This document shows positions 21,458 to 36,395 of a DNA stretch of 64,000 nucleotides, piece by piece. The position numbers and the translations under genes were made by a program. The stretch is from Candidatus Hecatella orcuttiae (GTDB taxonomy: Archaea > Thermoproteota > Bathyarchaeia > Hecatellales > Hecatellaceae), in contig MTLY02000001.1 of assembly GCA_002011035.2 (NCBI GenBank), positions 320,001 through 384,000 of the forward strand, read 5' to 3'. The notes under the pieces are model-generated. The model did not search any database and had not been told where the DNA came from. It saw only the letters and a program-made list of their open reading frames with translations. The first letter of the stretch is position 1, and each line of letters begins with the position of its first letter.

Positions 21458-22855
21458 ATGGACTACCTAACCAGAATGGGAGACGGCCGACCGGTAAGAA
21501 TGAGCAAAGAGCAGATAAAAGCCGACATCGAAGCCGGAACCAAGGACGCGGCGGAAAAAGCCCACGTCCCCGAGCTTTCAGGAGCCGAACAAGAGCATCT
21601 GCTGGAGATCATCACCGACCCCAACCGGCTGGTAGCCGTGGAGCCGGGGAGAGAAGTCGTCCTCACCCACGACGTAGGGCCTTTGAAGGTGATGGCCGAC
21701 CAGTCCAACAGCGGAGTGAGCATCCCATGCTCCCGGGAGCAAGCCATGTGCATCTACGAGAAAGCCTTCAGCGCCGACACCGCCGAGCTGGGGCACATCG
21801 ACTACAGCTTCAAACCCGTTAAACCCATCATCACCCAGGAGCAATCGGTCCTGCAGAACGTCCTGCACATGACCATCCTCCCCATCTTCTACGGAGCCAT
21901 GCCTAACCTAGGCCTATACTACGCCCCAGACGGACCCTTCCCCGAACCCATCGGGCTCATCAAGGACCGCAAGATAGGGGAAGCAAAAGAATCCATGGAA
22001 AACGCCGCCCACAGGTTTGTGGAAGACCTAGAATACATCACCGTGAGACTCTACGAGGTAGGCTTGGACGCCTTGAACATCGACACCACCGGCGCCGGAG
22101 GCGACGCAGACTTCTACGCCTCCCTTACCGCCACGGAAAAGATAAAGAAGGAATGCCCCTACCTCTGCGTGGAAATGGGCATGGCGGGAGAATTCATCCT
22201 AGGATTCCACACCGAGCTGAAATATCAAGGCGTCAAACTGGCGGGACTCTGGCCTCACCAGCAAGCCAGCCTCGCTGAAAAGGCAGGAGTGGACATCTTC
22301 GGCCCGGTGGTCAACACCAAGCCTTCTCTGTCCTTCCCCCTCAACATCGCCAGAGCAGTCACCTTGGTCAAGCACTGCGTCAAAGAATCCAAAATCCCCA
22401 TCCACGTCAACATGGGCATGGGCGTTGGGGGAATCCCCATGTACGAAACTCCGCCGGTGGACGCTGTGACCCGGGCCAGCAAGGCAATGGTTGAAATCGC
22501 CGAGGTAGACGGCTTATAGGTGGGAGTGGGCGATCCCTTTGGGATGCCCATAGCTCACTGCGCCGCCAGCGGCATGGGAGGCATCAGGACGGCGGGAGAC
22601 ATGGTGGCTAGGATGCAGATGCTGAGATATAGGTTGAAGGACGCGAAGGACTACGTGGCCAAGAAGCTGGAAACCGACACCATGGCTCTGCGGGACGAAT
22701 TTGAGATGAGAAGGCTGAGGGAGAGGCTCAACATCGGCACTATCACAGGCGTCCCAGGGGTCGCCAGGGGCCTCGAAGCCAAAGCCCGAATCGCCGAGAT
22801 CCTCGGCATCCGCATCAACGCTGTCGAACGCCTTAAGGAACTGGTGAAACTCTAA
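21458..22855 (+). CDS. mtbB: Dimethylamine methyltransferase with pyrrolysine (in-frame TAG 22517-22519, codon 354), 465 aa
   Basis: YLTRMGDG start; VDGL-TAG-VGVGDP continues in frame to [16 protein letters not shown]. Confidence 0.95.
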
Positions 22856-22863
22856 AGAGCCAA

Positions 22864-22936
22864 GCCCAGAGCCACCGCCCACCGACCCACGCGTGAAGCG
22901 AGGGGGATGAGGGAACGGCTAAGCCTCTGGGCCACA
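22864..22936 (+). ncRNA. Box H/ACA-type guide in mtbB 3' region; pocket matches mtbB amber codon
   Basis: GCCCAGAG/CUCUGGGC stem, C-ACA, K-turn CC-GA-CCC / GGG-GAU-GA-GG, pocket CCACC + UAAGC. Confidence 0.85.
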
Positions 22937-23198
22937 AACCCCATCTTCCTTTTTTTGAGCCGGAAGTATTGTGAAGGCTGATCTTAGAAAAAGTTAAATT
23001 CAGTGCACCGCTAGCCTTTTTAGAGGTAAAAATTGAAAAAGGACGGCAGCCGCCGAGCCTGCGTATTTCAGGTGGAAGCCAAGGAAACGGCACCTGATGT
23101 AACGGTGTCTCATCTGGGAGGCAGCCTTGGAAAAACCATGCCAAATATGTTATATTTGACATAGCCTTTTTTGGGGAAGCCTTCTTTTAGGTGATTTA

Positions 23199-23429
23199 AT
23201 GGAGGAAGCTCACGAAGTATTGGACGTTCGAAAAAAAGCCTGCCCCATGCCCGTTTTGTTGACGAAGAGAAAACTTGCGGAGTTGGAGGTGGGGAAAATT
23301 CTCAAGGTCATCGGAGACTATCCGTCGGCTAAAGAAAATATTCAAAGATTCGTCCTCAGAGAGGGACATGAGATCCTAAACATCAAAGAGAACCGAGCTA
23401 AGTTTGAAATCGTCATAAAAAAAGCTTAA
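23199..23429 (+). CDS. TusA/SirA-family sulfur carrier
   Basis: LDVRKKACPMP motif, 76 aa. Confidence 0.85.
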   Translation: MEEAHEVLDVRKKACPMPVLLTKRKLAELEVGKILKVIGDYPSAKENIQRFVLREGHEILNIKENRAKFEIVIKKA

Positions 23430-23496
23430 ATCACATATTTCCCATATTCTATTTAGAGGCAGGCTAAACCCTTAGCCACCTTTTAGGAGGAATTTT

Positions 23497-23841
23497 TTGA
23501 AAAAAATTGAAGCCTACATTAGGGCTGAAAGATTGAAGGAAACTATACAGAAATTGAAGGAAATAGGCGCACCCGGGTTCACCTACTATGATGTGAGAGG
23601 CCATGGCAGAGAATACAAGTCTGGGTTCACCCCCACGCCCTTCACGCCGCCCATCGTAGAAGATATTCTTCCTAGGTCGAAGATTGAAGTCTTCTGCGAG
23701 GATGGAGATGTAGAAAAGATCGTCGACGCCATCCGAGGAGGATGCTGCACGGCAAAGCCAGGGGATGGCATGGTTTTCATAAGCACCATCGACGAAGCCC
23801 AACGCTTAAAAACCAAAGAAAAAGTGCAAAAACTCGAATAG
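23497..23841 (+). CDS. glnK: P-II family nitrogen regulator
   Basis: MKKIEAYIR, VRGHGRE, KIEV, PGDGMVF. Confidence 0.85.
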   Translation: MKKIEAYIRAERLKETIQKLKEIGAPGFTYYDVRGHGREYKSGFTPTPFTPPIVEDILPRSKIEVFCEDGDVEKIVDAIRGGCCTAKPGDGMVFISTIDEAQRLKTKEKVQKLE

Positions 23842-24026
23842 CCGAAAACTGAAACAAACACCTCCTCCTTTTTATGGAGAAGGCGCTGTTTTTGGTGGAA
23901 ATTTTGTGAGAGTAGAAACAGCCTCTCTCAAAATCTACGCTGGGAGAGGGGCAAAGTTTTAAAGAATATACCGGTAAACCATAGAATACACGGGGACGGA
24001 ATCATCTCAGCGTTGTTGATGCCAGA

Positions 24027-24242
24027 ATGGATGTTGAAATCGAGGAACACAGACATTGTAGCGTTTGCGGCAGCGTGGTGCGGGGAAAGGGAAGAGCTAG
24101 GTCTGGCGTGGTGCTTTGCGGGCCCAGATGCGCTAAGATGTACGAGGATGAGATGGCGAAAGCTCGAAGGCTGAAGGTGATGTGGTTTTTCCCCATCATA
24201 TTTTTCCTCATAATCTTCATAATACTAGTTTTGAGAGGCTGA
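24027..24242 (+). CDS. DUF2116-like Zn-ribbon membrane protein
   Basis: EEHRHCSVCG...CGPRC, C-terminal TM. Confidence 0.75.
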   Translation: MDVEIEEHRHCSVCGSVVRGKGRARSGVVLCGPRCAKMYEDEMAKARRLKVMWFFPIIFFLIIFIILVLRG

Positions 24243-24441
24243 AAAACCCATAGCATATGGCCACATGTGGCTCTTGTTTTCAGGCTGATCTTCCCCGACG
24301 CGAATAACCGCGTCCAGCCAGCTCCATCAAACCGAGGAATGGCTCGCCGAAGCTGTCTTCAAAGGCAACTACTCTTTGAAGACTTTTACAGATACCTGCC
24401 TTAAGGCATGAAACAAAAATTTTAGACTTCAATTTGGGTTG

Positions 24442-24466
24442 TTTTTTTTAAAAAAAAAAAAAAAAA
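24442..24466 (-). terminator. T8/A17 tract, probable bidirectional terminator
   Basis: U17 on minus strand just after permease stop. Confidence 0.5.
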
Positions 24467-24481
24467 GTTGTGGGAGGGTTT

Positions 24482-25903
24482 TCACTCGACCACACGTAGT
24501 CTTTTCACTTCTTGCGGGTATATCAGATGCATGAGGAGCCAGTACAAGGCGATGGCATAGCCGAACACTAGGAGAAGCCCTGAAACCCATGGGAAGCCGA
24601 CGCCGAAGTAGCCTACGTAGCCTGTCAGAGGGTTGTAGACTCCCAGGTAGATTATGACACTGGAGAGATAGGTGATCCAAGCTGCCAGGTTGAAGCCTTT
24701 GTGGTATCGGAATATCTTCCCCATCATGTACATGTCTCTTATCTCGTCCACCGTCCAGTAGCCTTTCTTCTTCCTGAAGGCGAAGAAGTCGGTGAAGATT
24801 ATAGCCCCGTACACCGTCCACAGACAGCCGATGAGCGTCAGGAAGACAGCGTAGTTGTTGAACACCACTTCCTGAAACAGCACTACGGCCGGTACTGCCG
24901 CTATCGTGACGCTGGCATGCACCCACCTTATCCTAGGTATGGCCACCTTGATGGGTATAGCCGCCGTGTAGATAAGCAGCACAATCGACCCTATGTTGGC
25001 AATGGCGAAGAGGAAGAGCCCTATACCGCCGAAAGTTGCTCCACCGATAGCCATGAACCAGTCGGTTGGATCGAAGGTTCCAACGATCAAAGCCGTGAGA
25101 ATGGAGAAGACCACAGCAATGCACAGGACAGGCCCCCAGCCCCACCATGGACCGTGAAGGGCCGCTGACTCGGTCTTTGCCAGACGGGACCATTGCCCCC
25201 AATAGTAGCACCAAGCAAAACCTAAGCCTAGGTTCCACTCAAAGGCATTCATCCAAGATAGATGACGAGTCTCGTATGCTGCTACCGGTTGACGGGCGAA
25301 AACAGCGCCAATTCCTTCCACGGCGAAGATGTAGTAGATCAGGCCGCCTAGCACTATCAGCATCAATGGGGACGTAACCCTCGTAAACCACTTGCATGCA
25401 ATGGGACCCTTCCAAGCTACGTAGGAGGCAATGGCCGTTGCTATAACTGCCCAGAGGGTGGCGCCCGGCCATACGGTTGCGAGAACGGAGGGCACCTGAG
25501 GCCAGATCAGCGGGGTTAATTTTATCGCAGACATGCCGAAGAGAAACGCTGAATACGCTATCCACCCGTAGTTGATAGGTATCCATATGGCCAGCTGAAG
25601 GTTGCCTCCTCTGTTTCCAAAGGCAGCTCTCGTCAATAGGAACTGGTCGGCTCCATATCTGCCAAATATCACAGCATAAAAGGCGGATGCGAAGAGGCCT
25701 AATCCCTCACCGGCTATGGCGGCTGTTATGGCTTCAGTGGCAGGCAGTACTATTCCAGTCAAGCCGCCTACTAGGAAAGCCCAAGAGGCTATACCGTAGG
25801 CCATCTGCAGCCAGACATAGTCCACGAAACCGTAGACCCGGTCTTCCGCCAGCACCGGCAAAGCGCCGAACAGTACTTCCTTTTCAATCGCTTCTTTGGC
25901 CAT
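24482..25903 (-). CDS. NCS1 (cytosine/purine permease-like) transporter
   Basis: About 12 TM, RAAFGNRG, WSRLAK, GFNLAAW. Confidence 0.85.
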   Translation of the reverse strand: MAKEAIEKEVLFGALPVLAEDRVYGFVDYVWLQMAYGIASWAFLVGGLTGIVLPATEAITAAIAGEGLGLFASAFYAVIFGRYGADQFLLTRAAFGNRGGNLQLAIWIPINYGWIAYSAFLFGMSAIKLTPLIWPQVPSVLATVWPGATLWAVIATAIASYVAWKGPIACKWFTRVTSPLMLIVLGGLIYYIFAVEGIGAVFARQPVAAYETRHLSWMNAFEWNLGLGFAWCYYWGQWSRLAKTESAALHGPWWGWGPVLCIAVVFSILTALIVGTFDPTDWFMAIGGATFGGIGLFLFAIANIGSIVLLIYTAAIPIKVAIPRIRWVHASVTIAAVPAVVLFQEVVFNNYAVFLTLIGCLWTVYGAIIFTDFFAFRKKKGYWTVDEIRDMYMMGKIFRYHKGFNLAAWITYLSSVIIYLGVYNPLTGYVGYFGVGFPWVSGLLLVFGYAIALYWLLMHLIYPQEVKRLRVVE

Positions 25904-25906
25904 TTT

Positions 25907-26218
25907 TTATCGCCCCTTCCTCACCCGGTCAATTCCTATGAGTACCACTAGGATCAGTAGAGACCCGTAGAAGGACATGTGCGCCCAGAGGGGTATAGGG
26001 TTCACATAACCCAGCACTGCGAAAACAATAGCCCACAGCATGGCGAACGCCAAGGCCGCATAAGACCACATGGGGCATTTGGTAACCAAGGAGCCTTCGG
26101 TTCGAAGTTTTTCATCTAGGATCTTCAGTCTCCTCTCAAGCTCAGCGTGGAAGGCAGGGTAGAATGTTTCCGCGTCCATTCCAAACCAGAAACCTGCTCC
26201 TTTTTTCTTCTCACTCAC
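25907..26218 (-). CDS. Small 2-TM membrane protein upstream of permease
   Basis: 3 nt from permease start, two hydrophobic segments. Confidence 0.65.
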   Translation of the reverse strand: MSEKKKGAGFWFGMDAETFYPAFHAELERRLKILDEKLRTEGSLVTKCPMWSYAALAFAMLWAIVFAVLGYVNPIPLWAHMSFYGSLLILVVLIGIDRVRKGR

Positions 26219-26377
26219 AGTTCTTCACCGGTTTATCTTTTGGAGAATTTTCAGCTACATTCAAGTTAGTATTAACTATTCTTTTAGTATTTAAATTTTT
26301 GCGGCGATCAGCTTATAAAAAACAATTAATAATTTATTTAACAAAAAATAGATTTTTCGTAAGCCTGTTAAAATCAT

Positions 26378-26596
26378 TTAACCGAAAAGAAGCGCCAAAA
26401 TTGCCAGAGGAACGAGCACGATGAACGTGGAGAGGTACCAGAGAAGTTTTATTCTCTTAACTTTTTTAACCCGCTTATCATATGTTTTTGAACACTGCTC
26501 ACTGCATACGTAGGCTTTCCCAGGTTTGCCCTTGTCCTTGTGAGATATGACTGCTCCGCAAACCGCGCAGTGCTTGTGCTCCTCAAGGCCTTCCAC
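26378..26596 (-). CDS. DUF2116-like Zn-ribbon membrane protein (paralog of 24027)
   Basis: C-terminal part of ORF 26378..27139: EEHKHCAVCG...CSEQC plus TM; start reassigned to GTG 26596. Confidence 0.7.
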   Translation of the reverse strand: MEGLEEHKHCAVCGAVISHKDKGKPGKAYVCSEQCSKTYDKRVKKVKRIKLLWYLSTFIVLVPLAILALLFG

Positions 26597-26734
26597 GCTC
26601 AAAACTCCCACCATGAGAGGGGTTATCGAAAAGAAACTAGGGCTCAACCATGTTATTAAATTATTTGAAGACGGTTGTCTGACCTTTAACCAAAGCTTAT
26701 TTTTCAGGAGATGGTTATTTTTGAAAGATAAACA

Positions 26735-27322
26735 GTGCTCAAAATACTTGAAACCTCTCCGGGCGAGAAAAGGGAATCCTTCAAAAATCTCATAATCAAA
26801 CTTTTGAAGAAAACAGGGATAACCATCCACCAAGAAAAAATCCAAACCAAACCCCCTATAATCGATATGACCGGGCGGAAGTTCATAGGCGGAGATAAAA
26901 CCGTTGTGAGAATCGACTTCAGCAGGGAAGCCGTCTCCAAGCAGCTTAAAAATTTTTCCTCCTACATCAAATCCATGAAACTCAACCAGGGCGTATACAT
27001 TCCTTTTTATAAAAAAATCTGCAAGCCGAGTTTTCTGGTTCCCCCTAACGTCTACATGATCGACGGCGAAAGGCTGAGGCAGCTTATGGACAGGTTTCTG
27101 ATAAAAATCTCCTCCCGCGAAGCTGAACGCATGGTTCAAAACCTAAGTCGTGGAAAACAGCCTACTAGAAAACCGAAACTGGTATGCTGCAGAGGGCAGC
27201 TTAACTGGCTGGTCATGGCTGTGAAAAACAGGAGAAATAAGCGAATGTACTTAGTGGACGTGGAAACTGGAAACATCACTGTTAAGCCAGCCTCACCTAA
27301 AAAAAGAGATAGACTTGTATAA
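26735..27322 (+). CDS. Hypothetical basic protein, possibly degenerate Mrr-like nuclease fold
   Basis: IIDMTG, VYMIDGERLRQL, C-terminal YLVDVETG. Confidence 0.55.
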   Translation: MLKILETSPGEKRESFKNLIIKLLKKTGITIHQEKIQTKPPIIDMTGRKFIGGDKTVVRIDFSREAVSKQLKNFSSYIKSMKLNQGVYIPFYKKICKPSFLVPPNVYMIDGERLRQLMDRFLIKISSREAERMVQNLSRGKQPTRKPKLVCCRGQLNWLVMAVKNRRNKRMYLVDVETGNITVKPASPKKRDRLV

Positions 27323-27342
27323 AAAAATAGAGGGGAAATTTA

Positions 27343-27359
27343 GGCTGATTTAATCAGCC
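27343..27359. terminator. Inverted repeat between convergent genes
   Basis: GGCTGATT-T-AATCAGCC. Confidence 0.35.
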
Positions 27360-27362
27360 AAG

Positions 27363-28847
27363 CTACCCGCGCGCAGCCCTGTCCGCTTCTTTGACGATAG
27401 CCTCCATGGAGGCCAACAGGTCTTTGTCGATGGGTGGAACCTGGTGAGTCTTCAAGATTTCCTTCGACTTTTGGTAGGCCAAGTAGGCTAGGTCCTTCTT
27501 GTCTGTTTTTTTCTCCCAAGTTCCTCGCATGTCCCTGTTCAGCAGCGTGGGGAAGGATTCCTCCGCGTCCATCCATTGGAGGGTGTGCTTCTTGGAGAGG
27601 AAGTTCCCCCCAACCCCCACCTCTTTTATGAGGTCTGTCGCCAAGGTGTCATCGTTCACAGAGATGCCCTTGGTAGCCCTCCGGCACATGGCTATGATAT
27701 CGTGGTCGATGATCAGCTGCTCCAAGCTGAACGTTTGACCCAGCTCCAGCATCCCAGCGCCGTAGATGGCATTGGCCCCCGCCAGCATGGGCAGGAGGGT
27801 GGTTATGGTCTTCTCGTGGGCAGCCTGCGCGTCGGGGAGCTTGGCATCAGCCTAGGTGCCTGCCACATAGCTGGGCAGCCCATAATACTGCGCAAGTTGC
27901 GAAACAGCGGCGCTTATCAGCCCCAGCTCCGGCGCTCCCACGGGTGCTGTGGCCGTCCTGAGGTCGAACATGGTGGTGGAGCTGCCGTAGATGACAGGTG
28001 CACCGGGCTCTGTCAGCTGGGCGAGGACGATGCCTGAGAGCACTTCTGCGTTATGGGTCACCAAAGTGCCGGCCAACGTCACGGGGCCTGTAGCTCCAGA
28101 CATGGCCATGCTTAGCACGTTCACCGGGATGTCGTAGCGGGCTCCTTGGATGATGACTCCGCAGGCGTTGGCGTGCAGCTGGAGGGGACTGGTGGGACAC
28201 AGCAACACGGATATGATGGGCCTCTTCCTGAAGGCTTCTTCGTCGCCTCCATAGTAGGCGACACCCATCTTGAAGTAGTACTCCATGTGCTCAGCCACCG
28301 GGTCGACGTGGTGGAAGTGTTTTCTCGTCCCCACCCAGGAAGTGAAGGTTTCGTGGACGTCCGAAGCCAAGCCTTCCATCAGAAGCTCTCTGGCTGCACA
28401 GGGCAGGGAGAAGAAGTCGATGGTGGAGCACCAATCTGCAAGGACAGCGGCTTCATAGACGTCTTGATTGTTCGACTCTCGAATGGAATTGGTTTCATAT
28501 TCGTAGGTGTACAGCCCCGTGCCGAAGGTAGTGTTACCCACTTTTCTTCCAGCCTCTAGAAGCACGTCGCTTCCCTTTTCACGGCCGGCTAAAAGGACTC
28601 GGCCGGGACACTTGTGGAGGGCGTCCTTAACGATGTGCTCAGGAATCCTCACCATGCGTTTCACCGGGTCAACGTCACATCCTCCCTTTTTGAAGATTTC
28701 CAAAGCCTCTTCATGGTAGACTCCAACTCCGCTGGTCTTCAATACGTCCATCGTCTCCGAGTTGATGCGGTCTAGGGCGTCTCTGGAAAGTAGCTCCAAC
28801 CTAGCTCCTTGAACCATGTCAAGTCCGGCGAAGAGTTTCACTGGCAT
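27363..28847 (-). CDS. mttB: Trimethylamine methyltransferase with pyrrolysine (in-frame TAG 27854-27852), ~494 aa
   Basis: YGLPSYVAGT-TAG-ADAKLPDAQAAHEKT...GANAIYGAGMLE; ATG 28847 after GGAGGTGA; final stop is also TAG. Confidence 0.95.
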
Positions 28848-28913
28848 TGCATTTTTCACCTCCCTTTTTTCTGGGTATTTGTTTCATCACGCCCCTCCTC
28901 GGCGCTCGATGAG

Positions 28914-28977
28914 TGTACCCTTCAAGCATCTCCGCCCCTCATCAACATGGTTCAGGGCAGCGGCTTGGCTGAAGGGT
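28914..28977 (-). ncRNA. Box H/ACA-type guide in mttC-mttB spacer; pocket resembles mttB amber context
   Basis: ACCCUUCAG/UUGAAGGGU then ACA; CUGCCCU-GA / GA-GGGGCGG K-loop; pocket CCAAGCC + GAUGC. Confidence 0.8.
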
Positions 28978-28993
28978 TAAACCGGATGATGGG

Positions 28994-29644
28994 TCATTTC
29001 TTTTCCAGAAGTTCTTTAGCCTTGTTCACAGCGTCGACAGCATCTTCTCCTCGAGCGTCAGCACCGATGACTTTAACCCAGTCAGCGGTAACCGGCGCGC
29101 CTCCGACCATGTAGACTACTTTGTCCCTGATGCCTGCCTTCTTCAACTCTTCAGCCAAAGTCTTCTGCTCAGGCATGGTGGTAGTCATGAGGGCAGAAGC
29201 GCCGACGATATCAGCGTTGACCTCTTTGGCCTTGTCTACGATGGTTTTAGCCGGTATGTCGCGGCCTAGGTTGAACACTTGGAATCCGGCGGCCTCCATC
29301 ATCACGGCGACGATGTCTTTTCCTAGGTCGTGAACGTCTCCGAGGACTGTGGCTATCACTACTTTGCCTAGGTATTTTCTTTCCTTTCCCGCCTGAAGCT
29401 TAGGCGTCAGCATGACTATCGCTTCCCTCAGAGCATCAGCCGCCATCATGACGTGAGGGAGGTAGAGTTCACCTTTCTGGAAGGCTTCCCCTATCTTCCG
29501 CATTTCTTCGGTGCTGGCGTCGATGGCCGCTAAAGCGTCTATGTCAGACTCGAGGATCTTGTTCACGACAGCCTTCGTGGCTTCCACGTCACCTTCGCGG
29601 ATCGCTGCGCACAATTTACGCAATATTTCTTCTTTTTCAGCCAT
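28994..29644 (-). CDS. mttC: Trimethylamine corrinoid protein
   Basis: GDVHDLGK, SALMTTT, MVGGAP; upstream of mttB. Confidence 0.88.
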   Translation of the reverse strand: MAEKEEILRKLCAAIREGDVEATKAVVNKILESDIDALAAIDASTEEMRKIGEAFQKGELYLPHVMMAADALREAIVMLTPKLQAGKERKYLGKVVIATVLGDVHDLGKDIVAVMMEAAGFQVFNLGRDIPAKTIVDKAKEVNADIVGASALMTTTMPEQKTLAEELKKAGIRDKVVYMVGGAPVTADWVKVIGADARGEDAVDAVNKAKELLEKK

Positions 29645-29861
29645 AGGAGAACAACCCCTGTCGTTTCACCCCCAACTAGTAAACATTGTTTGCATTAAAA
29701 AATTTTTCCAGCTACTACTTTTCTGGTAGCGGGGAAGCGGCAGAAAAATTGAGCGGTTTAAATAATTAATGTAAGCAGATTCAAAAAAATCTCTGATTTA
29801 GATAAACCAATTTATAGGGGAAAGATAAAAGTACAAATTGGTGAACTGCGAAAAAATTGAT

Positions 29862-29929
29862 GGGGGATCGGCCGGGGGGCCACAAGAGTTCTAACCTCTT
29901 GGAGCCGGGTTCGACTCCCGGATCCCTCG
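29862..29929 (+). tRNA. pylT: tRNA-Pyl (anticodon CUA at 29891-29893)
   Basis: GGGGGAU/AUCCCUC acceptor, single C linker, GGCC-GGGG-GGCC D arm, 6-bp CAAGAG/CUCUUG anticodon stem, 3-nt variable loop, CCGGG-UUCGACU-CCCGG, G discriminator, no encoded CCA. Confidence 0.95.
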
Positions 29930-29969
29930 GCACAGGAAAAGGGCTTATTTAAAATCTATGTGAGCTTCC

Positions 29970-30812
29970 ATGGGCGATTCCTCCATCACCTTTACCCCCA
30001 GCCAAAAGCAGCGTTTGATAGAGCTTGGTGCTGAGCTCAGCAAACTGGAAGCTTCTTTTACCTCCCCCAGAGAGCGGGAAAAGGTTTTCAACAGCCTAGC
30101 TGAGAAGCTTACGAGAAAAAACCGGGAAACGATAAAGAAGCTGAAGGACAGCGGAAAAAGGCCTCCCCTTAAAACCGTTGAAAGTAAGCTGGTGAACGTT
30201 TTAACCTCTCTGGGGTTCGTTGAGGTTGTCACTCCCACGATAATTCCGAAGACCTTCATCAGCCGAATGGGGATCGAAAAGGAAAGCAACCTCTGGCAGC
30301 AGATACTCTGGCTGGACGGCCGGCGATGCCTCCGCCCCATGCTGGCACCTAACCTATACTTCGTAATGGGGAAGCTTAGAAGATTCTGGAAGCCTGTGAG
30401 GATATTCGAGGTTGGATCCTGTTTTCGAAAAGACACTCGGGGGTCCTTCCACACCGAAGAGTTCACCATGCTCAATTTCGTGGAGTTAGCTCCTGATGCA
30501 AACCCTCGGGAACGTTTGGCGGAGCTGATAGCCAAGACTATGGGAGGCCTCGGCATCGGATCCTACGAGGTTCGATCTGAAAGCTCAGAAGTCTACGGGG
30601 AAACCTTAGATGTCTTGGTCAAAGATGTGGAGATAGGCTCCGCTGCCATAGGGCCTAAGCCCATGGATGTCAACTGGGGCATCGTTGACCCTTGGGTAGG
30701 GTTGGGCCTCGGCATTGAAAGAGTAGCCATGGTGACAGGGAACCATCACCCCATAGCGAGGGTGAGTAGAAGCCTCATATACCTCAACGGCGCTAGGTTG
30801 GATATCAAATAG
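29970..30812 (+). CDS. pylS: Pyrrolysine--tRNA ligase, catalytic domain only (no N-terminal domain)
   Basis: LRPMLAPNLY, FEVGSCFRKD, EEFTMLN, VYGETLDV, 280 aa, directly after pylT. Confidence 0.95.
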   Translation: MGDSSITFTPSQKQRLIELGAELSKLEASFTSPREREKVFNSLAEKLTRKNRETIKKLKDSGKRPPLKTVESKLVNVLTSLGFVEVVTPTIIPKTFISRMGIEKESNLWQQILWLDGRRCLRPMLAPNLYFVMGKLRRFWKPVRIFEVGSCFRKDTRGSFHTEEFTMLNFVELAPDANPRERLAELIAKTMGGLGIGSYEVRSESSEVYGETLDVLVKDVEIGSAAIGPKPMDVNWGIVDPWVGLGLGIERVAMVTGNHHPIARVSRSLIYLNGARLDIK

Positions 30813-30816
30813 GGCT

Positions 30817-31926
30817 GTGGAATTGATGCCCCTGACGAGCACCGCCTTGAAGGGCGAGGCTTCCCGCGAGGTTCAGGAAATTCTGGCAAAAGCCGCTGAG
30901 GGAAACTTAGAGGAGAAGGACGCCCTACGCTTGATGAAAGCCGAAGGCATAGACGACTTGTTCGCCCTGTTCAACACCGCCCATGAGATAAGAAAACGAC
31001 AGTTCGGCGACAAGGTTTTCGCCTACGGCTTCGTCTATTTTTCCACCTACTGCCGGAACAATTGCTCCTTCTGCCTTTACCGGCGTGCAAACCGGTGTGC
31101 TCCCCGCTATAGGAAAAAAGCAGACGAAATAATGGAGATAGCGGAGATGTTGAAGAAGTCGGGAGTGCACCTCATCGACTTAACCTCGGGGGAAGACCCT
31201 CAAATCCATTCGGAGAAAGGGTACCGCAGACTGTTGAGCTACGTGGAGAGGCTGAAGAAGGAATTGGACATGCCTCTCATGGTTTCACCGGGGGTTTTAC
31301 CGAAAACCGTTCTCAGGGAGTTGGGAAGAAAAGGTTTGGACTGGTATGCCCTCTACCAGGAAACCCACAACCGCCTTCTTTTCTCCAAGCTCCGCTGCCG
31401 CCAAGACTATGATGAAAGGATGAAAGCCAAGACCTACGCCAGAGAAGAGGGAATGCTTATTGAGGAGGGAATTCTCATCGGTGTAGGCGAAAGCAGGGAA
31501 GACGTGGTCGATTCCGTCTACCAGATGAAAAAGATGAAAGCCCACCAGGTTAGAGCCATGGGCTTCATACCTCAGAGAGGAACTCCTATGGAAAGCCGCC
31601 CCTCGCCGCCGATTCTCGAAGAAATGAAGGCCATATCTTTGATGCGCCTTGTCCACCCAGATAGGCTGATCCCAGCTTCCTACGACATCGACGGTCTTAA
31701 AGGCCTAGGCCTACGCCTGATGGCTGGGGCCAACGTGGTGACCTCCCTGATACCTCCAAGGTTTCACCTCCGGGGAGTAGCCCAGGCGGAGTTGGATGTG
31801 GAAAGCAGCCTGCGAACGCTTTCTGGCGTAAAACCCTACCTCCAAAAGCTGGGATTGGAGGTAGCTTCCCTGAAGAGTTACAGGAAATGGATTGAAGAAG
31901 AGAAAGCTCGCCTCCCGGGGAAATAG
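30817..31926 (+). CDS. pylB: Methylornithine synthase (radical SAM)
   Basis: YGFVYFSTYCRNNCSFC, YQET, LIPASYDIDG, GANVVTSLIP. Confidence 0.93.
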   Translation: MELMPLTSTALKGEASREVQEILAKAAEGNLEEKDALRLMKAEGIDDLFALFNTAHEIRKRQFGDKVFAYGFVYFSTYCRNNCSFCLYRRANRCAPRYRKKADEIMEIAEMLKKSGVHLIDLTSGEDPQIHSEKGYRRLLSYVERLKKELDMPLMVSPGVLPKTVLRELGRKGLDWYALYQETHNRLLFSKLRCRQDYDERMKAKTYAREEGMLIEEGILIGVGESREDVVDSVYQMKKMKAHQVRAMGFIPQRGTPMESRPSPPILEEMKAISLMRLVHPDRLIPASYDIDGLKGLGLRLMAGANVVTSLIPPRFHLRGVAQAELDVESSLRTLSGVKPYLQKLGLEVASLKSYRKWIEEEKARLPGK

Positions 31927-31932
31927 GCTTCC

Positions 31933-33141
31933 ATGCCCGTCAAAACCTTATGCATCGCAGGCGGACGGCTTCAGGGAATTGAGGCTGCCTACCTTGCCAG
32001 AAAAGCCGGATACAAAACAGTGCTCGTAGACCGGAGAGCCAAGCCACCTGCCTCAACGCTCGTTGACAACTTCAAGAGACTGGACGTGGCGAAGGATAAA
32101 GGCAGGTTGAAGAAAGCAGTAGAGGAAAGCGACGCAGTCTTACCAGCTCTAGAGGACGAAGAAGCCTTACGGGTTCTGGAAGAAACTTGCTGCCAGGCAG
32201 GGGTTCCCTACCTGCAGGATAACAGCGCCTTCGCCGTCACCTCCAATAAAATCCAGTCTCAGAGCTTCTTCAGGAAAATGGGCCTTCCAACTCCAGAAAT
32301 CTGGCCTCGATGCCGGCTGCCCGTGATAGTCAAGCCCGCTCATGCGAGCGGAAGCACCAGCATATACAAGGTGGAAAGGATAGAGGAGCTGAGCCAAGCT
32401 GTGGATGCTGTGTTGAAGACAGACCGTGAATACCTGATCCAAGAATACGTGGAAGGCCCATCCTTGTCCTTGGAGGTTTTATCCTGGAACGGCGAAGGGC
32501 AGCCTCTTCAGGTCACAGGCCTAGAATTCGACCGAACCTTCGGCTGCAAACGGGTTGTGGCTCCATGCCGGCTTGATAGCTTTCTGGAGGAAGAGATATT
32601 CGAAATGGGAAGGAGGATGGCTGAAGGGCTGAACCTATCGGGTTTAACTGATGTTCAATTAATCCTAGGCCCACAGGGGATCAGGGTCATAGAGATGAAC
32701 GCTAGGCTGCCAAGTCAAACACCTACGGTGGTATACCATTCAACCGGCGTAAACATGGTTGAATTGCTCTGCTCACTTTTCACCCAAGGCAATCTGCGCC
32801 CTGTGAAAATACCCGACCAGAAGGCTGTCATCTACCAGCATGTGAAAATTGAAGGAAAGCAACTGACAGTGACAGGAGAGCACAGCCTCTCGGACGCTGA
32901 AGGCTTGAGGTTTGAGAAAAACTTCATGGGAGCGGATGAAGCCGTCACCAACCTCAACCCTGAGGGGGAGGCTGAAGGATGTGTAGCAACATTGATAACC
33001 GTGAGCCGTCGCCTCCGAGACGCGAAAAAGAAAATGGAAAAATCCGTGAACTCCCTTCGACACCGTTATGGGCTCACCGGCTTCTCTGACCCCTCACCAG
33101 AAGGTTTGAGGCAGAAGTTCTATGACGAGATTGACTCCTGA
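31933..33141 (+). CDS. pylC: 3-methylornithine--L-lysine ligase (ATP-grasp)
   Basis: GGRLQGIEAAYLA, QEYVEGPSLSLEV, EMNARLPSQTP. Confidence 0.93.
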   Translation: MPVKTLCIAGGRLQGIEAAYLARKAGYKTVLVDRRAKPPASTLVDNFKRLDVAKDKGRLKKAVEESDAVLPALEDEEALRVLEETCCQAGVPYLQDNSAFAVTSNKIQSQSFFRKMGLPTPEIWPRCRLPVIVKPAHASGSTSIYKVERIEELSQAVDAVLKTDREYLIQEYVEGPSLSLEVLSWNGEGQPLQVTGLEFDRTFGCKRVVAPCRLDSFLEEEIFEMGRRMAEGLNLSGLTDVQLILGPQGIRVIEMNARLPSQTPTVVYHSTGVNMVELLCSLFTQGNLRPVKIPDQKAVIYQHVKIEGKQLTVTGEHSLSDAEGLRFEKNFMGADEAVTNLNPEGEAEGCVATLITVSRRLRDAKKKMEKSVNSLRHRYGLTGFSDPSPEGLRQKFYDEIDS

Positions 33142-33949
33142 GATTTTAAAGCCCATCCCCGAGACGGTTCCCCGATTTGATGAGGAGTTAAAAGCTAAAA
33201 TCGGCGTCAGCCTTCTGGAAGCAGCCCTCCGCGCAGCCGACTGCGGTGCAGCCGTAGAGAGGGCGTTGAAACGCTGTCGGGCCGCCGTTGTACCCATAAC
33301 TTCCGGGGAAGGCATCATTCCCGGCTTCGCTGAGGCTGTGGCATCCACTCTCCGCCATTTGGGATTGCAGGCTGAGCCAACCCGGAATTCGGACGTTCGG
33401 GGGTTCATCGAGGCTTTGGAGAAAAAATGTCAGCTCCTCTTCGCCGCCGACGACCATGTTTTCGCAGGCATGAACCTTCGAAATTTTAAGGTAGTGGACA
33501 ACGCCCCTGCCACCGGCCGAGGCTATGCGGCGGTTTTGGAATTAAAGCTAAAGGAGAAAAGTAAGTGCGCAGCAGTCATCGGAGTGGGAAAGGTGGGCTC
33601 CGCCGCCGTCGCTTATCTAGCTGGAAGAGGGTTTCCGGTTTATATCTACGATTCAAACCGCGCCAAAGCTGAGCATGTGAAAAACACGAACCCGGGGAGA
33701 AACATTCAGGTATGCAGCTCTGTGGAAGAATGTTTCAGCAAAGCTAGGGGAGTCATCTTGGCAGCTCCAGCCGCCAACTTGGTGACGGAGGCCATGGTGG
33801 ACGAAGACACCGTGATAGCCGCCCCGGGGATTCCTTTGGGACTCACAGCGGAGGCAAGGCGGAAGCTTCCTGAGAGGAATCTTATCCACGAACCTCTCAT
33901 GCTGGGAGTGGCGACTATGGCGGTGGAGCTTCTCAAACCTAAACCCTAA
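33122..33949 (+). CDS. pylD: Pyrrolysine synthase (dehydrogenase)
   Basis: MTRLT, VPITSGEGII, ADD, DNAPATGRGY, GVGKVG, IHEPLMLGVATM. Confidence 0.93.
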   Translation: MTRLTPEILKPIPETVPRFDEELKAKIGVSLLEAALRAADCGAAVERALKRCRAAVVPITSGEGIIPGFAEAVASTLRHLGLQAEPTRNSDVRGFIEALEKKCQLLFAADDHVFAGMNLRNFKVVDNAPATGRGYAAVLELKLKEKSKCAAVIGVGKVGSAAVAYLAGRGFPVYIYDSNRAKAEHVKNTNPGRNIQVCSSVEECFSKARGVILAAPAANLVTEAMVDEDTVIAAPGIPLGLTAEARRKLPERNLIHEPLMLGVATMAVELLKPKP

Positions 33950-34084
33950 GCTATCGGTGTCTGAAAAACCAGCAACCCCTCTAAGATTATTACCTTACCC
34001 TTGCTTTTCAGCTTAAGGAAATATGAAAGAGAAAAATACAGAGGGTAGTAGGGGAGACTGGGCGGAAATAAAAGAGAGAGGTGT

Positions 34085-35476
34085 TTAGAAGGTGAACTTC
34101 AACCCTAGTCCTTCCAAGGTCTCCACAGCCTTCCCGTAGACCTCCACGTACTCCGGTGTAGGAGTCACTTTAACCACGTCGTAGCATTGCTGGAATGTCT
34201 TACCCTGAGGCGGGTTCCTGTAGTTTCCCTCGTAAAGGGATATCAGCTTGTCCAAGATCTCGTTCACAGTCTCCACCTTCATCCCAGCCACAGCCTTGGC
34301 AGCTTCACCCATAATCCTCGCCTCCATACCTGTGGTGTAATCCAAGGCCACACCCTTAGCCGCAGCGGACCCAGACATCAGCTCCCGGCCGCTGCCTGTG
34401 TCCGTGATGGCCTGCGCAGCCGTTTCCAGGAGACACATCTCCGTGCAAGGCTGGGCTAGAGGATAGTACTGGTTGGAAGTCAACAGGTGCGTGTTGGCGT
34501 CGATGGCCATGTTGCAGTGCCCAGCCACCGTCAAGGGCTCCCGGGCGGTGGTGATCCCCCACCTGACATGAACAGGCCCGTCTAGGTGGAAGTCGGCGTT
34601 GCAGATGGTGAAGGCGATGAGGTGGGAGGACACGTCCACGATGGTGGTTTCCTCCAAGCCGCCGGCGTAGCCGCCGAAAGTGGGCATCTGCTCGATCATG
34701 ATGATGTCGCCGTTCATGATCCACCCTGCTATCATCTGAAGCCCTCCTAGGTCCACCTTCAACTCGTTGAGCAGGGACATTTCATGGGGGTCAGACGCCC
34801 TCATGCCGCCTTCGAAGTCGGCGGCAATTCGCCCCGCAGGGCTTAGGGGCGTCTCTGGTCCCTATAAGCCCATGCCAGGCCTGCCCACCTTATGGCAGGC
34901 TTGCCTGACTAAAGCGACCTCCATTCTTGTCCCTTTGATTTCCCAAGGCGAGTTGGGGAAGGGCTCGTTTCCTTCCACGGTGTTCATCACTCCGCTGACA
35001 ATACAGTCGACAATGGCTTCCTGAGCGTAGCTTTGCATCATGGGAAGGAAAATTTCCTCCGAAACCGGAGCGCCTGTAGGTCCGCCTTGGACGATAGGCC
35101 ATCGGGAGTCTTGAGGAGACCTGGGAACCATGTCCACGGCGTCCCTTCCTTCGCCGATGACCAGCTTATCAGGGGCTTTCTTGATGGCCTCCTTGACCTC
35201 TTCCTCGGTGACTTTTATAACCCGACCGGTGTTGATGCAGTAGACGCCGTTCTGAACCAGCATCTCCATGCCGGCTAGGAACAGGCTGTTGATGGTGTCC
35301 TTGTCGGTGGGTATGACTTCCTTTTCATTGAACTTTATCCCGTATTTCTTCTTGAGCGCCGACGCGCTTTGAGGGATAATTTTAAAGTCCCATTCTTTTT
35401 CGGAAACCTTAGGCCCTGTCTTAGCTCTGTTGAAAGCTTCAAACACGTCTACCGGTCTTTCCACAACTTTTTTCAA
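34085..35476 (-). CDS. mtmB: Monomethylamine methyltransferase with pyrrolysine (in-frame TAG 34864-34862, codon 205), 463 aa
   Basis: GRPGMGL-TAG-GPETPLS...LNELK...PCTEM...TGMEAR continuous frame. Confidence 0.95.
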
Positions 35477-35507
35477 TTTCTCACCTCCTTTCCCTTTGAT
35501 TTTTAAC

Positions 35508-35569
35508 TGTCTCTTTTACCCTTTAGCACACCCTCATGCTCAGTCGGGCATGCGGGTTTGGTAAAAGAG
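35508..35569 (-). ncRNA. Box H/ACA-type guide in mtmC-mtmB spacer; pocket core matches mtmB amber context
   Basis: CUCUUUUACC/GGUAAAAGAG then ACA; GCAUGCCC-GA / GA-GGGUGUGC K-loop; pocket AAACCC + UAAAG. Confidence 0.8.
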
Positions 35570-35574: not shown

Positions 35575-36225
35575 TCATCTACCAACTAGGTTTTTGGCTA
35601 CCTTAACCGCTTCCGCTGCATCCGCCGCGTAGCCGTCGCCGGCAATCTGCTCCACATACTCCCTTGAAACCGGCGCCCCTCCGTGGAGAGTTTTAACCCT
35701 GTCTCTTAACCCTGCCTCCTTCAGAGCGTCCACTATTTCTTTTTGAGCCGGCCTGGTGGTGGTCATCAAGGTTGAGGCGGCGACGATGTCGGCGTCGATC
35801 TCCTTAACCTTCTTCAGAAACTCTGCGATGGGGACATCTCGGCCTATGTCTACAACCTCAAAACCTGCCCCTCGCAGCATGGTGGCCACGAGGTTTTTGC
35901 CGATTTCATGGATGTCCCCCTCCGGTGTGCCTATGACAACTTTCCCCAGTTTGGCTTTCTCCGCCTGAGCGGTGGTCATTTTTTCCTCCAGTATTTTTGT
36001 GGCTTCGCTCATGGCATCGGCTGCCAGCACTATTTGGGGAAGGTATAGTTCCCCTTTGTCGAAACGGTCTGAAATGGTCTCCATTCCTTTCGCGAGGCCT
36101 TGGGTGATAGCTTCATAGGGGTCAATGCCGGCTTTAAGGGCTTCTTTAGCTCCCTCGACAGCCGCAGACACGTCCATCTCTTCGATAGCCCGCTTTAGTT
36201 TATTAAATATCTCTTCTTTGGACAT
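35575..36225 (-). CDS. mtmC: Monomethylamine corrinoid protein
   Basis: GDIHEIGK, STLMTTT, GGAPV; upstream of mtmB; ATG 36225 preferred. Confidence 0.88.
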   Translation of the reverse strand: MSKEEIFNKLKRAIEEMDVSAAVEGAKEALKAGIDPYEAITQGLAKGMETISDRFDKGELYLPQIVLAADAMSEATKILEEKMTTAQAEKAKLGKVVIGTPEGDIHEIGKNLVATMLRGAGFEVVDIGRDVPIAEFLKKVKEIDADIVAASTLMTTTRPAQKEIVDALKEAGLRDRVKTLHGGAPVSREYVEQIAGDGYAADAAEAVKVAKNLVGR

Positions 36226-36395
36226 ATAGAACAAATCCTCTTTTCATTCAGCAAGATTTTATAGGCAAATCGCGGGTATTTAAATTTTAGGAACTTGGAG
36301 GATATCGAAGAAAAAGCGTTTTCTGATGGAGATTTTACCGTTAAATGGTAGGCTGCATCTTTACTTCGAAGAAGAAGCTGGTTTCTGTCTCTTCT

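Follow-up and report, generated by a model that had tools for sequence, protein, structure and literature searches.

Three pyrrolysine (Pyl)-dependent methylamine methyltransferase operons of the uncultured archaeon Candidatus Hecatella orcuttiae each contain one H/ACA-like hairpin (H1–H3, Table 1; positions are those of the window, the whole 64,000-nt stretch of DNA that was analysed). The methyltransferase genes had been named mtmB, mtbB and mttB in an earlier, sequence-only reading, and these identities agree with Pfam. The same-strand, non-coding hairpins that it described are present exactly where it had placed them. The pylS gene in the same region encodes a product of 280 aa that consists of the catalytic domain only. 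H1–H3 are predicted to be transcribed as parts of the three operons, with the hairpins starting 6 nt (H1, after mtbB), 16 nt (H2, after mttC) and 5 nt (H3, after mtmC) beyond the upstream stop codon. H2 and H3 fall wholly inside mtxC–mtxB spacers, in a genome that is approximately 89% coding.

Table 1. Coordinates of the Pyl genes, the hairpins and their parts
Feature	Position	Strand	Description
mtbC	20796..21440	+	corrinoid protein, B12-binding domains; ends 17 nt upstream of mtbB
mtbB	21458..22858	+	dimethylamine methyltransferase; Pfam Dimeth_Pyl, 687 bits
mtbB in-frame UAG	22517-22519	+	residue 354
mtbB stop	22856-22858	+	TAA
PYLIS_2 match in mtbB	22517-22616		Rfam
H1	22864..22936	+	H/ACA-like hairpin, 3′ UTR of mtbB
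H1 P1	22864-22871/22925-22932	+	8 bp, perfect
H1 PS1	22872-22874	+	CCA
H1 P2	22875-22880/22911-22918	+	6 bp plus AA bulge
H1 GA and GA	22884-22885 and 22909-22910	+	extra ACC before the first; 23-nt distal part between
H1 PS2	22919-22924	+	CUAAGC
H1 ACA	22934-22936	+	followed by a U-run
mttB	27363..28859	-	trimethylamine methyltransferase; Pfam MTTB, 297 bits; Rfam PYLIS_3
mttB stop	27363-27365	-	TAG; UGA two codons further
mttB in-frame UAG	27852-27854	-	residue 336
H2	28914..28977	-	H/ACA-like K-loop hairpin, 134-nt mttC–mttB spacer
H2 P1	28977-28969/28925-28917	-	9 bp, perfect
H2 PS1		-	CCAAGCCG
H2 P2	28960-28954/28938-28932	-	7 bp
H2 GA and GA	28953-28952 and 28940-28939	-
H2 PS2		-	AGAUGC
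H2 ACA	28916-28914	-
mttC	28994..29644	-	corrinoid protein
pylT	29861..29931	+	tRNA-Pyl, anticodon CUA
pylS, pylB, pylC, pylD	29970..33949	+
mtmB	34085..35476	-	monomethylamine methyltransferase; Pfam MtmB, 731 bits
mtmB in-frame UAG	34862-34864	-	residue 205
PYLIS_1 match in mtmB			Rfam, 59 bits, below gathering score
H3	35508..35569	-	H/ACA-like K-loop hairpin, 98-nt mtmC–mtmB spacer
H3 P1	35569-35560/35520-35511	-	10 bp, perfect
H3 PS1		-	AAACCC
H3 P2	35553-35546/35533-35526	-	8 bp
H3 GA and GA	35545-35544 and 35535-35534	-
H3 PS2		-	UAAAG
H3 ACA	35510-35508	-
mtmC	35575..36234	-	corrinoid protein

Geometry and kinship of the hairpins

The archaeal H/ACA architecture attributed to the hairpins holds in every testable feature of shape under the rules quoted in PMC7075261. 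Each upper stem is capped by GA...(A)UGA, the distance from upper-stem base to ACA is exactly 15 nt in all three, and the distal G:A lies 10, 9 and 10 nt (H1, H2 and H3) from the P2 base on the 3′ side; an n+15 spacing and a 9–10 nt rule are those given for archaeal single-hairpin box H/ACA RNAs in Majumder et al. 2020 (PMC7075261). The pockets measure 3+6 (H1), 8+6 (H2) and 6+5 nt (H3). H1 fits the shape only with bulges, and its K-turn is ambiguous. The fold energy of H3 stands out (z of −4.9, with 0/200 shuffles folding equally well), while H1 and H2 have ordinary fold energies (z of −1.6 and −1.3), and an Rfam search returned no family match for any of the three. The assignment of H1–H3 to the archaeal H/ACA type, made purely on shape, is supported. 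Genes for cbf5 and l7ae, which the sequence-only reading wished to see confirmed elsewhere in the genome, are present along with those for Nop10 and Gar1; the Cbf5 gene product has DKCLD, TruB and PUA domains, and the L7Ae family is represented by two genes.

Although the three hairpins do differ in sequence, as had been claimed, they are diverged paralogues of a small family rather than independent designs. Similarity is highest between H2 and H3 (z of 4.4, 0/500 shuffles as good), followed by H1 and H2 (z of 3.4, 1/500) and H1 and H3 (z of 1.0, 86/500), and all three lie within 13 kb. The best-conserved stretch is the 5′ pocket plus upper-stem strand; AUGAGGG, the core of the K-loop, is retained, as is the ACA, whereas the sequence of P1 is wholly different among the paralogues and still pairs perfectly. 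That P1 was rewritten while the ACA, the 15-nt spacing, the 9–10-nt K-loop distance and AUGAGGG were kept argues for selection on the features that define H/ACA RNAs. It also argues against H1–H3 being plain intercistronic or 3′-end stem-loops for mRNA stability or processing, which would act without H/ACA proteins and carry GA/GA and ACA by chance and descent. Kinship itself, however, favours such stem-loops, since a shared ACA and 15-nt spacing in paralogues are not three independent events. The U-run after H1, like that of a 3′-end element, and the ordinary fold energies of H1 and H2 lean the same way.

Genome-wide scans bear on this question from both sides. In a descriptor scan of the whole genome (1.75 Mb), H3 is the best and H2 the second-best of the H/ACA-like hairpins: the strict version gave 31 raw matches at 13 places, with a P1 of at least 9 bp and a P2 of at least 7 bp only in H2 and H3, and the relaxed version scored H3 at 16, H2 at 14 and the next candidate at 13.5. 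In 15 shuffled genomes, however, 5 matches reached 14 and 2 scored 16 (a score of at least 14 is expected about 0.33 times per shuffled genome), and the case for H/ACA hairpins therefore depends on location. Stems of at least 6 bp closed by GA...UGA are frequent (197 in the genome versus 99–115 in shuffles), as plain stem-loops would have it, yet the top two matches genome-wide both fall in equivalent mtxC–mtxB spacers. The ACC and AA bulges of H1 kept it out of both the strict and the relaxed scan, and model R1, which matched H2 at 13.2 bits, also missed it. On balance, we consider plain stem-loops an unlikely explanation.

Targets in trans and related genomes

Complete H/ACA geometry and a genome that encodes the partner proteins would equally suit ordinary trans-acting guide sRNAs for rRNA, tRNA or other RNA, released by processing from UTRs and spacers within a 15-kb gene island. 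Local duplication of such a family, whose members lie so close together, could explain the shared location, and archaeal guide sRNAs often adjoin or overlap ORF ends. Against this, the scan of the pockets against host rRNA and tRNA that had been suggested with the original claim gave no convincing rRNA target (H2 and H3 reach at most 8 contiguous pairs, 2+6) and none among 24 tRNAs (best match of 7), and the H1 pocket is very small. The rRNA set of the assembly is doubtful, consisting of two unlike operons with long insertions, one of them cut at a contig end, so that a genuine target may have escaped the scan; the hairpin at window positions 4821-4895, which is the most canonical of the other candidates, had no target either, and no bona fide rRNA-guiding H/ACA RNA was identified in the genome as a positive control.

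Neither blastn nor model R1 found a homologue of the hairpins in 30 related genomes (13 of the same family and 17 others of the same class), which argues against ordinary conserved rRNA guides, as these are usually conserved at family or class depth. No hairpin scored at least 14 in 57 foreign loci (385,013 nt). H2 and H3 are lineage-specific inserts in mtxC–mtxB junctions that are tight in 27/35 other MtmB/MttB loci, where the corrinoid gene ends −4 to +37 nt from the methyltransferase match. Insertion exactly at cistron boundaries, and in the three Pyl methyltransferase operons only, is likewise at odds with a trans-acting function, which we regard as rather unlikely.

Pocket fit to the Pyl UAG codons

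The sequence-only reading had proposed that the hairpins are H/ACA guides acting in cis, which would convert the U of each Pyl UAG to pseudouridine or leave an L7Ae/Cbf5 particle sitting there. If so, tRNA-Pyl would decode these UAGs, and termination would continue at ordinary UAG stops. The setting is compatible with this proposal: every Pyl-gene operon has one hairpin and none of equal quality occurs elsewhere in the genome, and TAG is still the stop of 296/1137 long ORFs genome-wide, so that the organism needs a means to limit Pyl insertion.

The pocket of H1 provides evidence in its favour. Under a tolerant scoring scheme, applied identically to every site but chosen post hoc, H1 pairs 5+3 around the mtbB UAG with UAGG unpaired (8/8 possible pairs, and thus full complementarity to the flanks), a score equalled by 3/40,640 TAG sites and 2/14,572 TAGG sites; this codon is also the best H1 site among the 327 U of its own operon RNA. 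In strict geometry, the pairing is 0+0. The arms of the 5+5 pairing first put forward find two all-Watson–Crick sites among 841,521 genomic U, one of which is the mtbB UAG, but this pairing requires opening of the lowest upper-stem pairs, and with the P2 base melted, the K-turn-to-pocket distance drops under 9–10. The structure-preserving alternative leaves 4 target nt and 1 guide nt unpaired; more than two unpaired nt are tolerated in a yeast pocket according to PMC6049503. Judged by its complementarity, the H1 pocket alone could hold a Pyl UAG, that of mtbB.

The claim that every pocket targets its gene's own UAG and leaves the U and A free holds in strict geometry for H3 (3+3 bp) but fails for H1 and H2. 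The H3 pairing is equalled or exceeded at 5.9% of TAGG sites, and that of H2 (0+0 in strict geometry, 1+4 with one-nt offsets) at 15%. Better sites occur in the respective operon RNA, one for H3 and eight for H2; one of the eight, lying 135 nt upstream of the UAG, pairs 4+4. Both pairings fall short of the 8-bp minimum for H/ACA guiding given in PMC6049503, and H2 has no pairing on the 3′ pocket side, the more important one in one archaeal study (PMC7075261). The 5′ pocket strand is common to H2 and H3 instead of being tailored to the gene. When windows are ordered by plain duplex energy, those with the UAG lie only in the top 0.9%, 4.2% and 2.6% of own-gene windows, and cross-pairs behave similarly. 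On the other hand, H1, H2 and H3 each score above the genomic median on their own gene, and in 3/3 pairings the guide co-varies with position +4. With two of three pockets fitting poorly and their scores common among TAGG sites, we consider H1–H3 as a set unlikely to be a UAG-marking device; of the proposed three-part system, only the H1 pocket convincingly matches its codon, and guidance to the Pyl codons is, overall, improbable.

A possible cis-structural role and known systems

We tentatively favour, at somewhat short of even confidence, a reading of H1–H3 as mRNA-embedded H/ACA-type RNP hairpins that have a cis-structural role on the operon RNA and no convincing common target. L7Ae would bind the GA/GA K-loop, and the lower stem and ACA would be bound by Cbf5–Nop10–Gar1, giving a particle that may stay on the operon RNA or be trimmed out. 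At H2 and H3, it would act as a stable block separating the cistron for the corrinoid protein from that for the methyltransferase, and at H1, as a block at the 3′ end of the transcript; in this way, it could shape the processing, stability or translation of the operon transcripts. Against such a cis-structural role stands the good match of the H1 pocket to the mtbB UAG flanks, which it leaves unexplained.

Among the closest known systems are the archaeal guide sRNAs of the single-hairpin box H/ACA type, for example Pf9 of Pyrococcus. H1–H3 resemble such sRNAs in their stems, pocket-like loop, tandem G:A, ACA, n+15 spacing and 9–10 nt distance, by the rules quoted in PMC7075261. Unlike these sRNAs, they sit in protein-coding operons, 5–16 nt past stop codons, and have short pockets, no rRNA or tRNA target, no Rfam match and no counterpart found in relatives. 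In archaeal mRNAs, too, L7Ae binds k-turns and thereby regulates translation (Daume et al. 2017, PMC5539422), and a GA/GA kink that precedes a translated cistron, in its leader or in a spacer, is likewise predicted here. The mRNA k-turns described in PMC5539422 are simple and lie in the 5′ UTRs of sRNP-protein genes, in a feedback arrangement, whereas the motif here caps a hairpin that has the full H/ACA shape, ACA box included. H2 and H3 end 31–54 nt upstream of the start codon and do not overlap the ribosome-binding site.

Two further comparisons concern the decoding of stop codons. Karijolich and Yu reportedly obtained read-through in yeast in 2011 by engineered H/ACA-guided pseudouridylation of stop codons, and a pocket around the stop-codon U is conceivable for H1 and the mtbB UAG; their system is artificial, eukaryotic and of full-length complementarity, whereas two of the three pockets here do not fit. 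The literature searched contained no natural guide directed at a stop or Pyl codon. Like PYLIS and SECIS elements, H1–H3 would be RNA structures tied to decoding a stop as the 21st or 22nd amino acid. The PYLIS matches at this locus, however, consist of the coding sequence immediately 3′ of the individual UAGs, whereas H1–H3 are 350–1100 nt distant and in two cases precede the gene. In the eukaryotic SECIS, an L7Ae-family protein binds a GA/AG kink motif, but the AUGA of H1–H3 is on the 3′ strand, the opposite arrangement.

The pyrrolysine island and its three hairpins

The complete pyrrolysine island spans 20.8-36.2 kb of the window, with operons on both strands. When TAG is read as pyrrolysine (Pyl, O), three full-length methyltransferases of the Dimeth_Pyl, MTTB and MtmB families result, and matches to the Rfam PYLIS models are confined to coding sequence directly 3' of each in-frame UAG. 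The host assembly is archaeal (1.75 Mb, three contigs, stated contamination of 4.25%), and the window sequence is also present in subsurface and marine metagenome runs. The island looks acquired by this host, because searches for MtmB return nothing from the 13 further genomes of its family (E <= 1e-30) or among 400 from its class (E <= 1e-100), and the closest outside MtmB, from a scan of genome contigs that recovered 44 MtmB loci, is 66% identical. The genome (G000, contigs C1-C3) also encodes eleven MtmB paralogues, two pairs of them in tandem, which are 31-36% identical to Pyl MtmB and have no in-frame stop.

TAG stops are not purged in this Pyl-encoding archaeon: among 1137 non-overlapping ORFs of at least 200 aa in the whole genome, 296 end in TAG, 429 in TAA and 412 in TGA. 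A search for further TAG-interrupted genes yielded 87 same-frame ORF pairs, none of them informative because TAG is a common stop here. The mttB gene itself ends in TAG, followed by CUU GGC and then UGA, so that read-through by tRNA-Pyl would give just three extra residues.

Coordinates and strands of the features (window positions unless a contig is named)
Feature	Position	Strand	Remark
mtbC-mtbB		+	pyrrolysine island
in-frame UAG of mtbB	22517-22519		
mtbB UAG and region past it	22517-22531		UGGGC at +10 to +14 past the UAG
H1	22864-22936	+	3' of mtbB
GCCCA, 5' strand of H1 lower stem	22864-22868		
mttC-mttB		-	pyrrolysine island
mttB stop TAG	27363-27365	-	UGA to 27354
in-frame UAG of mttB	27852-27854		
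H2	28914-28977	-	mttC-mttB spacer
pylT and pylS-B-C-D		+	pyrrolysine island
PylS	29970-30812	+	280 aa, class II catalytic core only
mtmC-mtmB		-	pyrrolysine island
in-frame UAG of mtmB	34862-34864		
H3	35508-35569	-	mtmC-mtmB spacer
Intergenic hairpin	4821-4895 (G000:C1:324821-324895)	-	
MtmB paralogue	14243-15604	+	one of eleven
MtmB paralogue pairs	C1:531364-534124; C3:604927-607720		tandem
rRNA sets	G000:C2:464353-470232; G000:C3:4-4683		
cbf5	G000:C3:210850-211859 (locus L105:1477-2486)		two overlapping frames

The sequence-only reading placed a hairpin of archaeal H/ACA architecture on the coding strand of each methyltransferase operon. The positions of these hairpins (H1-H3) are confirmed exactly, and all three display a perfectly paired lower stem (P1), a pocket with 5' and 3' strands (PS1 and PS2), an upper stem (P2) and the spacings of this RNA class. 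The P2 base lies 15 nt from the ACA in 3/3 hairpins, in agreement with the n+15 (+/-1) spacing from pocket top to ACA that Majumder et al. (2020, PMC7075261) describe for this archaeal class. The same source gives a rule of 9-10 nt between the distal G:A pair and the P2 base, which the 3' sides follow and which played no part as a search constraint. In H2 and H3, GA stands directly above each P2 strand, with a loop of 11 or 8 nt and (A)U preceding the 3' GA, which is compatible with a K-loop at the level of sequence only; in H1, ACC is inserted ahead of the 5' GA. In H2, RNAfold also predicts an alternative register of the upper stem.

Elements of the three hairpins
Hairpin	P1 (bp)	PS1	P2 and closure	PS2	Nt before ACA	Pocket (nt)	Distal G:A to P2 base, 3'/5' side (nt)	Hairpin start
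H1	8	CCA	CCGCCC/GGG-AA-CGG, then ACC-GA...GA	CUAAGC	1	3+6	10/11	6 nt past mtbB stop
H2	9	CCAAGCCG	7 bp closed by GA-11 nt-GA	AGAUGC	0	8+6	9/9	16 nt past mttC stop
H3	10	AAACCC	8 bp closed by GA-8 nt-GA	UAAAG	0	6+5	10/10	5 nt past mtmC stop

H3 and H2 end 31 and 54 nt before the start codon, leaving the GGAGGUGA ribosome-binding sites uncovered. H1, which follows its own gene, is the weakest member: its 5' pocket side has 3 nt only, two bulges are needed, and it is missed both by the two descriptor scans and by R1, a covariance model built from H3 alone. No H/ACA-like hairpin was found 3' of mttB or mtmB, and a bacterial-type scan, on this archaeal host, returned 0 promoters and 0 terminators around H1. 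An Rfam search of the hairpins gave no match to an H/ACA family. Two other element types were rejected: a MITE, since the would-be terminal-repeat stems differ wholly between copies and the genome holds no further copies, and a C/D-box RNA, since the CUGA...UGAUGA pair occurs only as the internal K-loop of H2, without terminal C and D boxes.

Elsewhere in the window, an intergenic hairpin (4821-4895) resembles a textbook H/ACA sRNA. Its lower stem of 6 bp can be lengthened by an outer stem, the pocket is 9+9 nt and the upper stem 7 bp, and there are G:A pairs with U.U beneath and a distal GAGC/GCUC stem. The spacing to the ACA is 16 nt, and the distal G:A lies 10 nt above the stem base. Target searches on rRNA and elsewhere gave no match for it.

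Kinship and occurrence of the hairpins

A strict descriptor (P1 of at least 6 bp, pocket, P2 of at least 5 bp with GA...GA on its flanks, and 14-16 nt down to the ACA), applied to both strands of the genome, gives 31 raw matches at 13 places, with long stems in H2 and H3 only, and a relaxed scored scan ranks H3 (16) first and H2 (14) second among 357 matches, the next scoring 13.5. On their own these scores are only mildly unusual, because 15 shuffled genomes contain 5 matches that reach 14 and 2 that reach 16. Stems closed by GA...UGA are likewise common (197 in the genome vs about 105 in shuffles), so the K-loop by itself proves nothing. What sets H2 and H3 apart is their location: about 89% of the genome is coding and the other descriptor matches lie mostly inside ORFs, whereas H3 and H2 stand in sense orientation in spacers of 98 and 134 nt that separate the gene for a corrinoid protein from that for a Pyl methyltransferase.

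The hairpins also resemble one another. The similarity of H2 and H3 has a z of 4.4 (0/500 shuffles as good) and that of H1 and H2 a z of 3.4 (1/500), with 1.0 for H1 and H3, and by this measure the three are paralogues. MAFFT does not align them in structural register, and compensatory change is seen solely among these three paralogues. Across them, the P1 sequence is wholly rewritten with pairing still perfect, and the AUGAGGG core of the K-loop, the ACA and both spacings are retained. This would be the expected trace of selection on the features that define H/ACA RNAs, and it argues against simple stem-loops whose resemblance to H/ACA RNAs arose by chance and was inherited, an alternative that we regard as rather unlikely.

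Orthologous hairpins, for which the sequence-only reading had looked to related genomes, did not appear in 30 relatives: blastn with the H2 and H3 spacers returns short chance matches only (E >= 0.014), and model R1 finds nothing at E <= 0.1. Within the host, H2 is a weak match to R1 (13.2 bits, E 0.78, fourth of 14) and H1 is not found. A metagenome scan with PylS gave no match, and one with MttB yielded 13 loci; the top locus (75% identical) has 44 nt of upstream sequence on a contig of 1,582 nt. The strict descriptor has 0 matches in 44 foreign MtmB loci (250,407 nt), and relaxed scoring over 57 foreign loci (385,013 nt in all) peaks at 13.5, with none at 14 or above. In 27 of 35 foreign MtmB/MttB loci, the corrinoid gene ends -4 to +37 nt from the methyltransferase match; one locus with a long mtmC-mtmB gap (L072, 166 nt) has a plain hairpin, a U-run and AT-rich DNA, and the remaining seven are without a recognisable corrinoid ORF directly upstream. 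The mtbC-mtbB junction of the host is also tight (17 nt), and the hairpin there is placed after mtbB. From these comparisons, the hairpins are lineage-specific inserts. Four DNA sequencing runs showed no other letters, gaps or joints, and so offer no natural variation to draw on.

Pocket complementarity to pyrrolysine codons and other RNAs

The central proposal of the sequence-only reading was that each pocket is aimed at the UAG of its own gene. When all sites are scored by identical rules under several schemes, this holds up for H1 and not for H2 or H3. Under the strict geometry, which leaves UN unpaired and requires contiguous pairing from the top of the pocket, H3 forms 3+3 pairs with the mtmB UAG, a score reached at 0.24% of 841,521 genomic U, and both H2 and, with P2 intact, H1 score 0+0 at their own UAG. 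The arms originally assigned to H1 (CCACC and UAAGC) make 5+5 pairs with the mtbB UAG and have two all-Watson-Crick matches genome-wide, one being this UAG; they require melting of the lowest P2 pairs. With free placement, where each flank pairs anywhere in its own half of the hairpin, the background fractions are 2e-4 for H1, 0.011 for H2 (6 bp, using the lower-stem strand) and 0.15 for H3. A tolerant, structure-preserving scheme allows 0-1 unpaired guide nt atop each arm and 2-4 unpaired target nt.

Tolerant scoring of each pocket at its own UAG (fraction or number of sites as good)
Pair	Score	All U	TAG	TAGG	Rank among U of own operon RNA
H1/mtbB	5+3 = 8	1e-4	3/40,640	2/14,572	1 of 327
H3/mtmB	3+3 = 6	0.011	0.024	0.059	one better, two equal, of 410 (2nd-4th)
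H2/mttB	1+4 = 5	0.049	0.072	0.15	8 better, 14 equal, of 441 (9th-23rd)

The H1 score takes in every position that its pocket offers and leaves UAGG and one guide nt unpaired. Better targets, which were also to be sought, are thus absent for H1 within its own operon RNA and present for the other two, those of H2 including one that lies 135 nt upstream of the UAG and pairs 4+4. RNAduplex energies, which permit large loops and are not discriminating, put the UAG windows among the best 0.9%, 4.2% and 2.6% within their own genes, with similar values for cross-pairs.

The match of H1 to the mtbB UAG is a genuine outlier, at about 1e-4 per site, or about 5e-3 when corrected for nine hairpin-gene pairs and several scoring schemes, one of which was picked after the data were seen. 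The matches of H2 and H3 could not separate a Pyl UAG from thousands of other TAGs, and these two hairpins are not aimed at their own UAGs by any known rule. The apparent three-fold agreement is in large part due to one shared feature: in 3/3 genes, the C-rich top of the common 5' strand of the pocket faces both the G of UAG and the first G of the next codon. The 3' pocket side is the more important one in an archaeal system (PMC7075261), and H2 has essentially no pairing on that side at the mttB UAG. Separately, GCCCA in the lower stem of H1 is complementary to UGGGC shortly past the mtbB UAG, so that this region mimics H1's own 3' stem strand.

A UAG-directed function, whether for all three hairpins or for H1 alone, is favored by the H1 outlier and opposed by the 1+4 pairs of H2 and 3+3 pairs of H3, which fall below the 8-bp minimum given for H/ACA guiding (De Zoysa et al. 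2018, PMC6049503); we consider it improbable. In its full form, which is quite improbable, H/ACA RNP hairpins would lie in each Pyl transcript, and at least H1 would bind in cis to the two flanks of the mtbB UAG and convert this codon to PsiAG or shield it from release factor; for H2 and H3, the effect would come from weaker pairing in cis (to UAG plus the next, G-rich codon) or from particle recruitment.

Convincing rRNA or tRNA matches, which the sequence-only reading had counted against itself, did not emerge. The best rRNA match of H2 and H3 is 8 contiguous pairs split 2+6, on which mismatch-tolerant scoring does not improve, and the best match among 24 ARAGORN tRNAs, including tRNA-Pyl, is 7. 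Bipartite complementarity of at least about 8 bp with UN unpaired was not found for H1-H3 on rRNA, tRNA or their own UAG, and the best whole-genome pocket matches are in ORFs or antisense to ORFs. With such rRNA and tRNA matches, it is unlikely that the hairpins are ordinary trans guides with unrecognised targets. A target-first hunt for rRNA guides gave 209 candidates (best rRNA match 8+3), among which no convincing rRNA-guiding H/ACA RNA was recovered as a positive control for this genome. Blank target searches are of limited value here, because there is no such control and the two rRNA sets are unlike in sequence, one cut by a contig end, and contain long insertions (a 16S match of 2169 nt and one 23S match of 3857 nt vs models of 1478 and 2987 positions).

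Partner proteins and likely role

The Cbf5 and L7Ae-family genes that an H/ACA particle was expected to need are present in the genome, together with Nop10 (78 bits) and Gar1 (33 bits); the two L7Ae-family genes score 110 and 73 bits. One frame of cbf5 encodes DKCLD (115 aa) and the other part of TruB_N with TruB_C_2 and PUA (247 aa), a split for which a short intron, a frameshift and an assembly error are candidate causes. Summed over the readings considered here, H1-H3 are probably H/ACA-class RNP-binding elements.

What appears to be new as it stands is the presence of H/ACA-shaped hairpins inside protein-coding operons. Our literature search returned no publication joining pyrrolysine with H/ACA; among the matches listed for pyrrolysine, pseudouridine, stop codons and archaea, none describes a natural guide to a Pyl or stop codon, and those on both L7Ae and pyrrolysine concern, to judge by title and abstract, unrelated matters. 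A wider question is how organisms that read UAG as Pyl discriminate a Pyl codon from a true stop, and it is sharpest in recent acquirers of Pyl with unpurged TAG stops, to which this host would belong. The locus offers a concrete and cheap test, with three short hairpins of complete H/ACA geometry, confined to the three Pyl-dependent operons, and an H1 pocket that fits the mtbB UAG exactly. Action of H1 on that codon, if true, would be categorically new, and with a UAG-directed function the 22nd amino acid would have a natural recoding signal that is specific to individual transcripts. Should recoding fail, H/ACA-class particles within protein-coding operon transcripts would still be unusual for archaea.

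The likeliest role, which we put forward tentatively, is that of a cis-acting particle on the operon RNA. H1-H3 would be co-transcribed with the three operons, and the particle would sit at a cistron boundary or at the 3' end of the operon RNA, where it may influence processing, stability or translation. This suggestion draws on precedent, since some mRNAs of archaea carry k-turns that L7Ae binds (Daume et al. 2017, PMC5539422). An L7Ae-regulated mRNA k-turn would be expected in the leader, at a place where bound L7Ae blocks initiation; H2 and H3 end before the start codons, at the distances noted, and H1 lies 3' of its gene.
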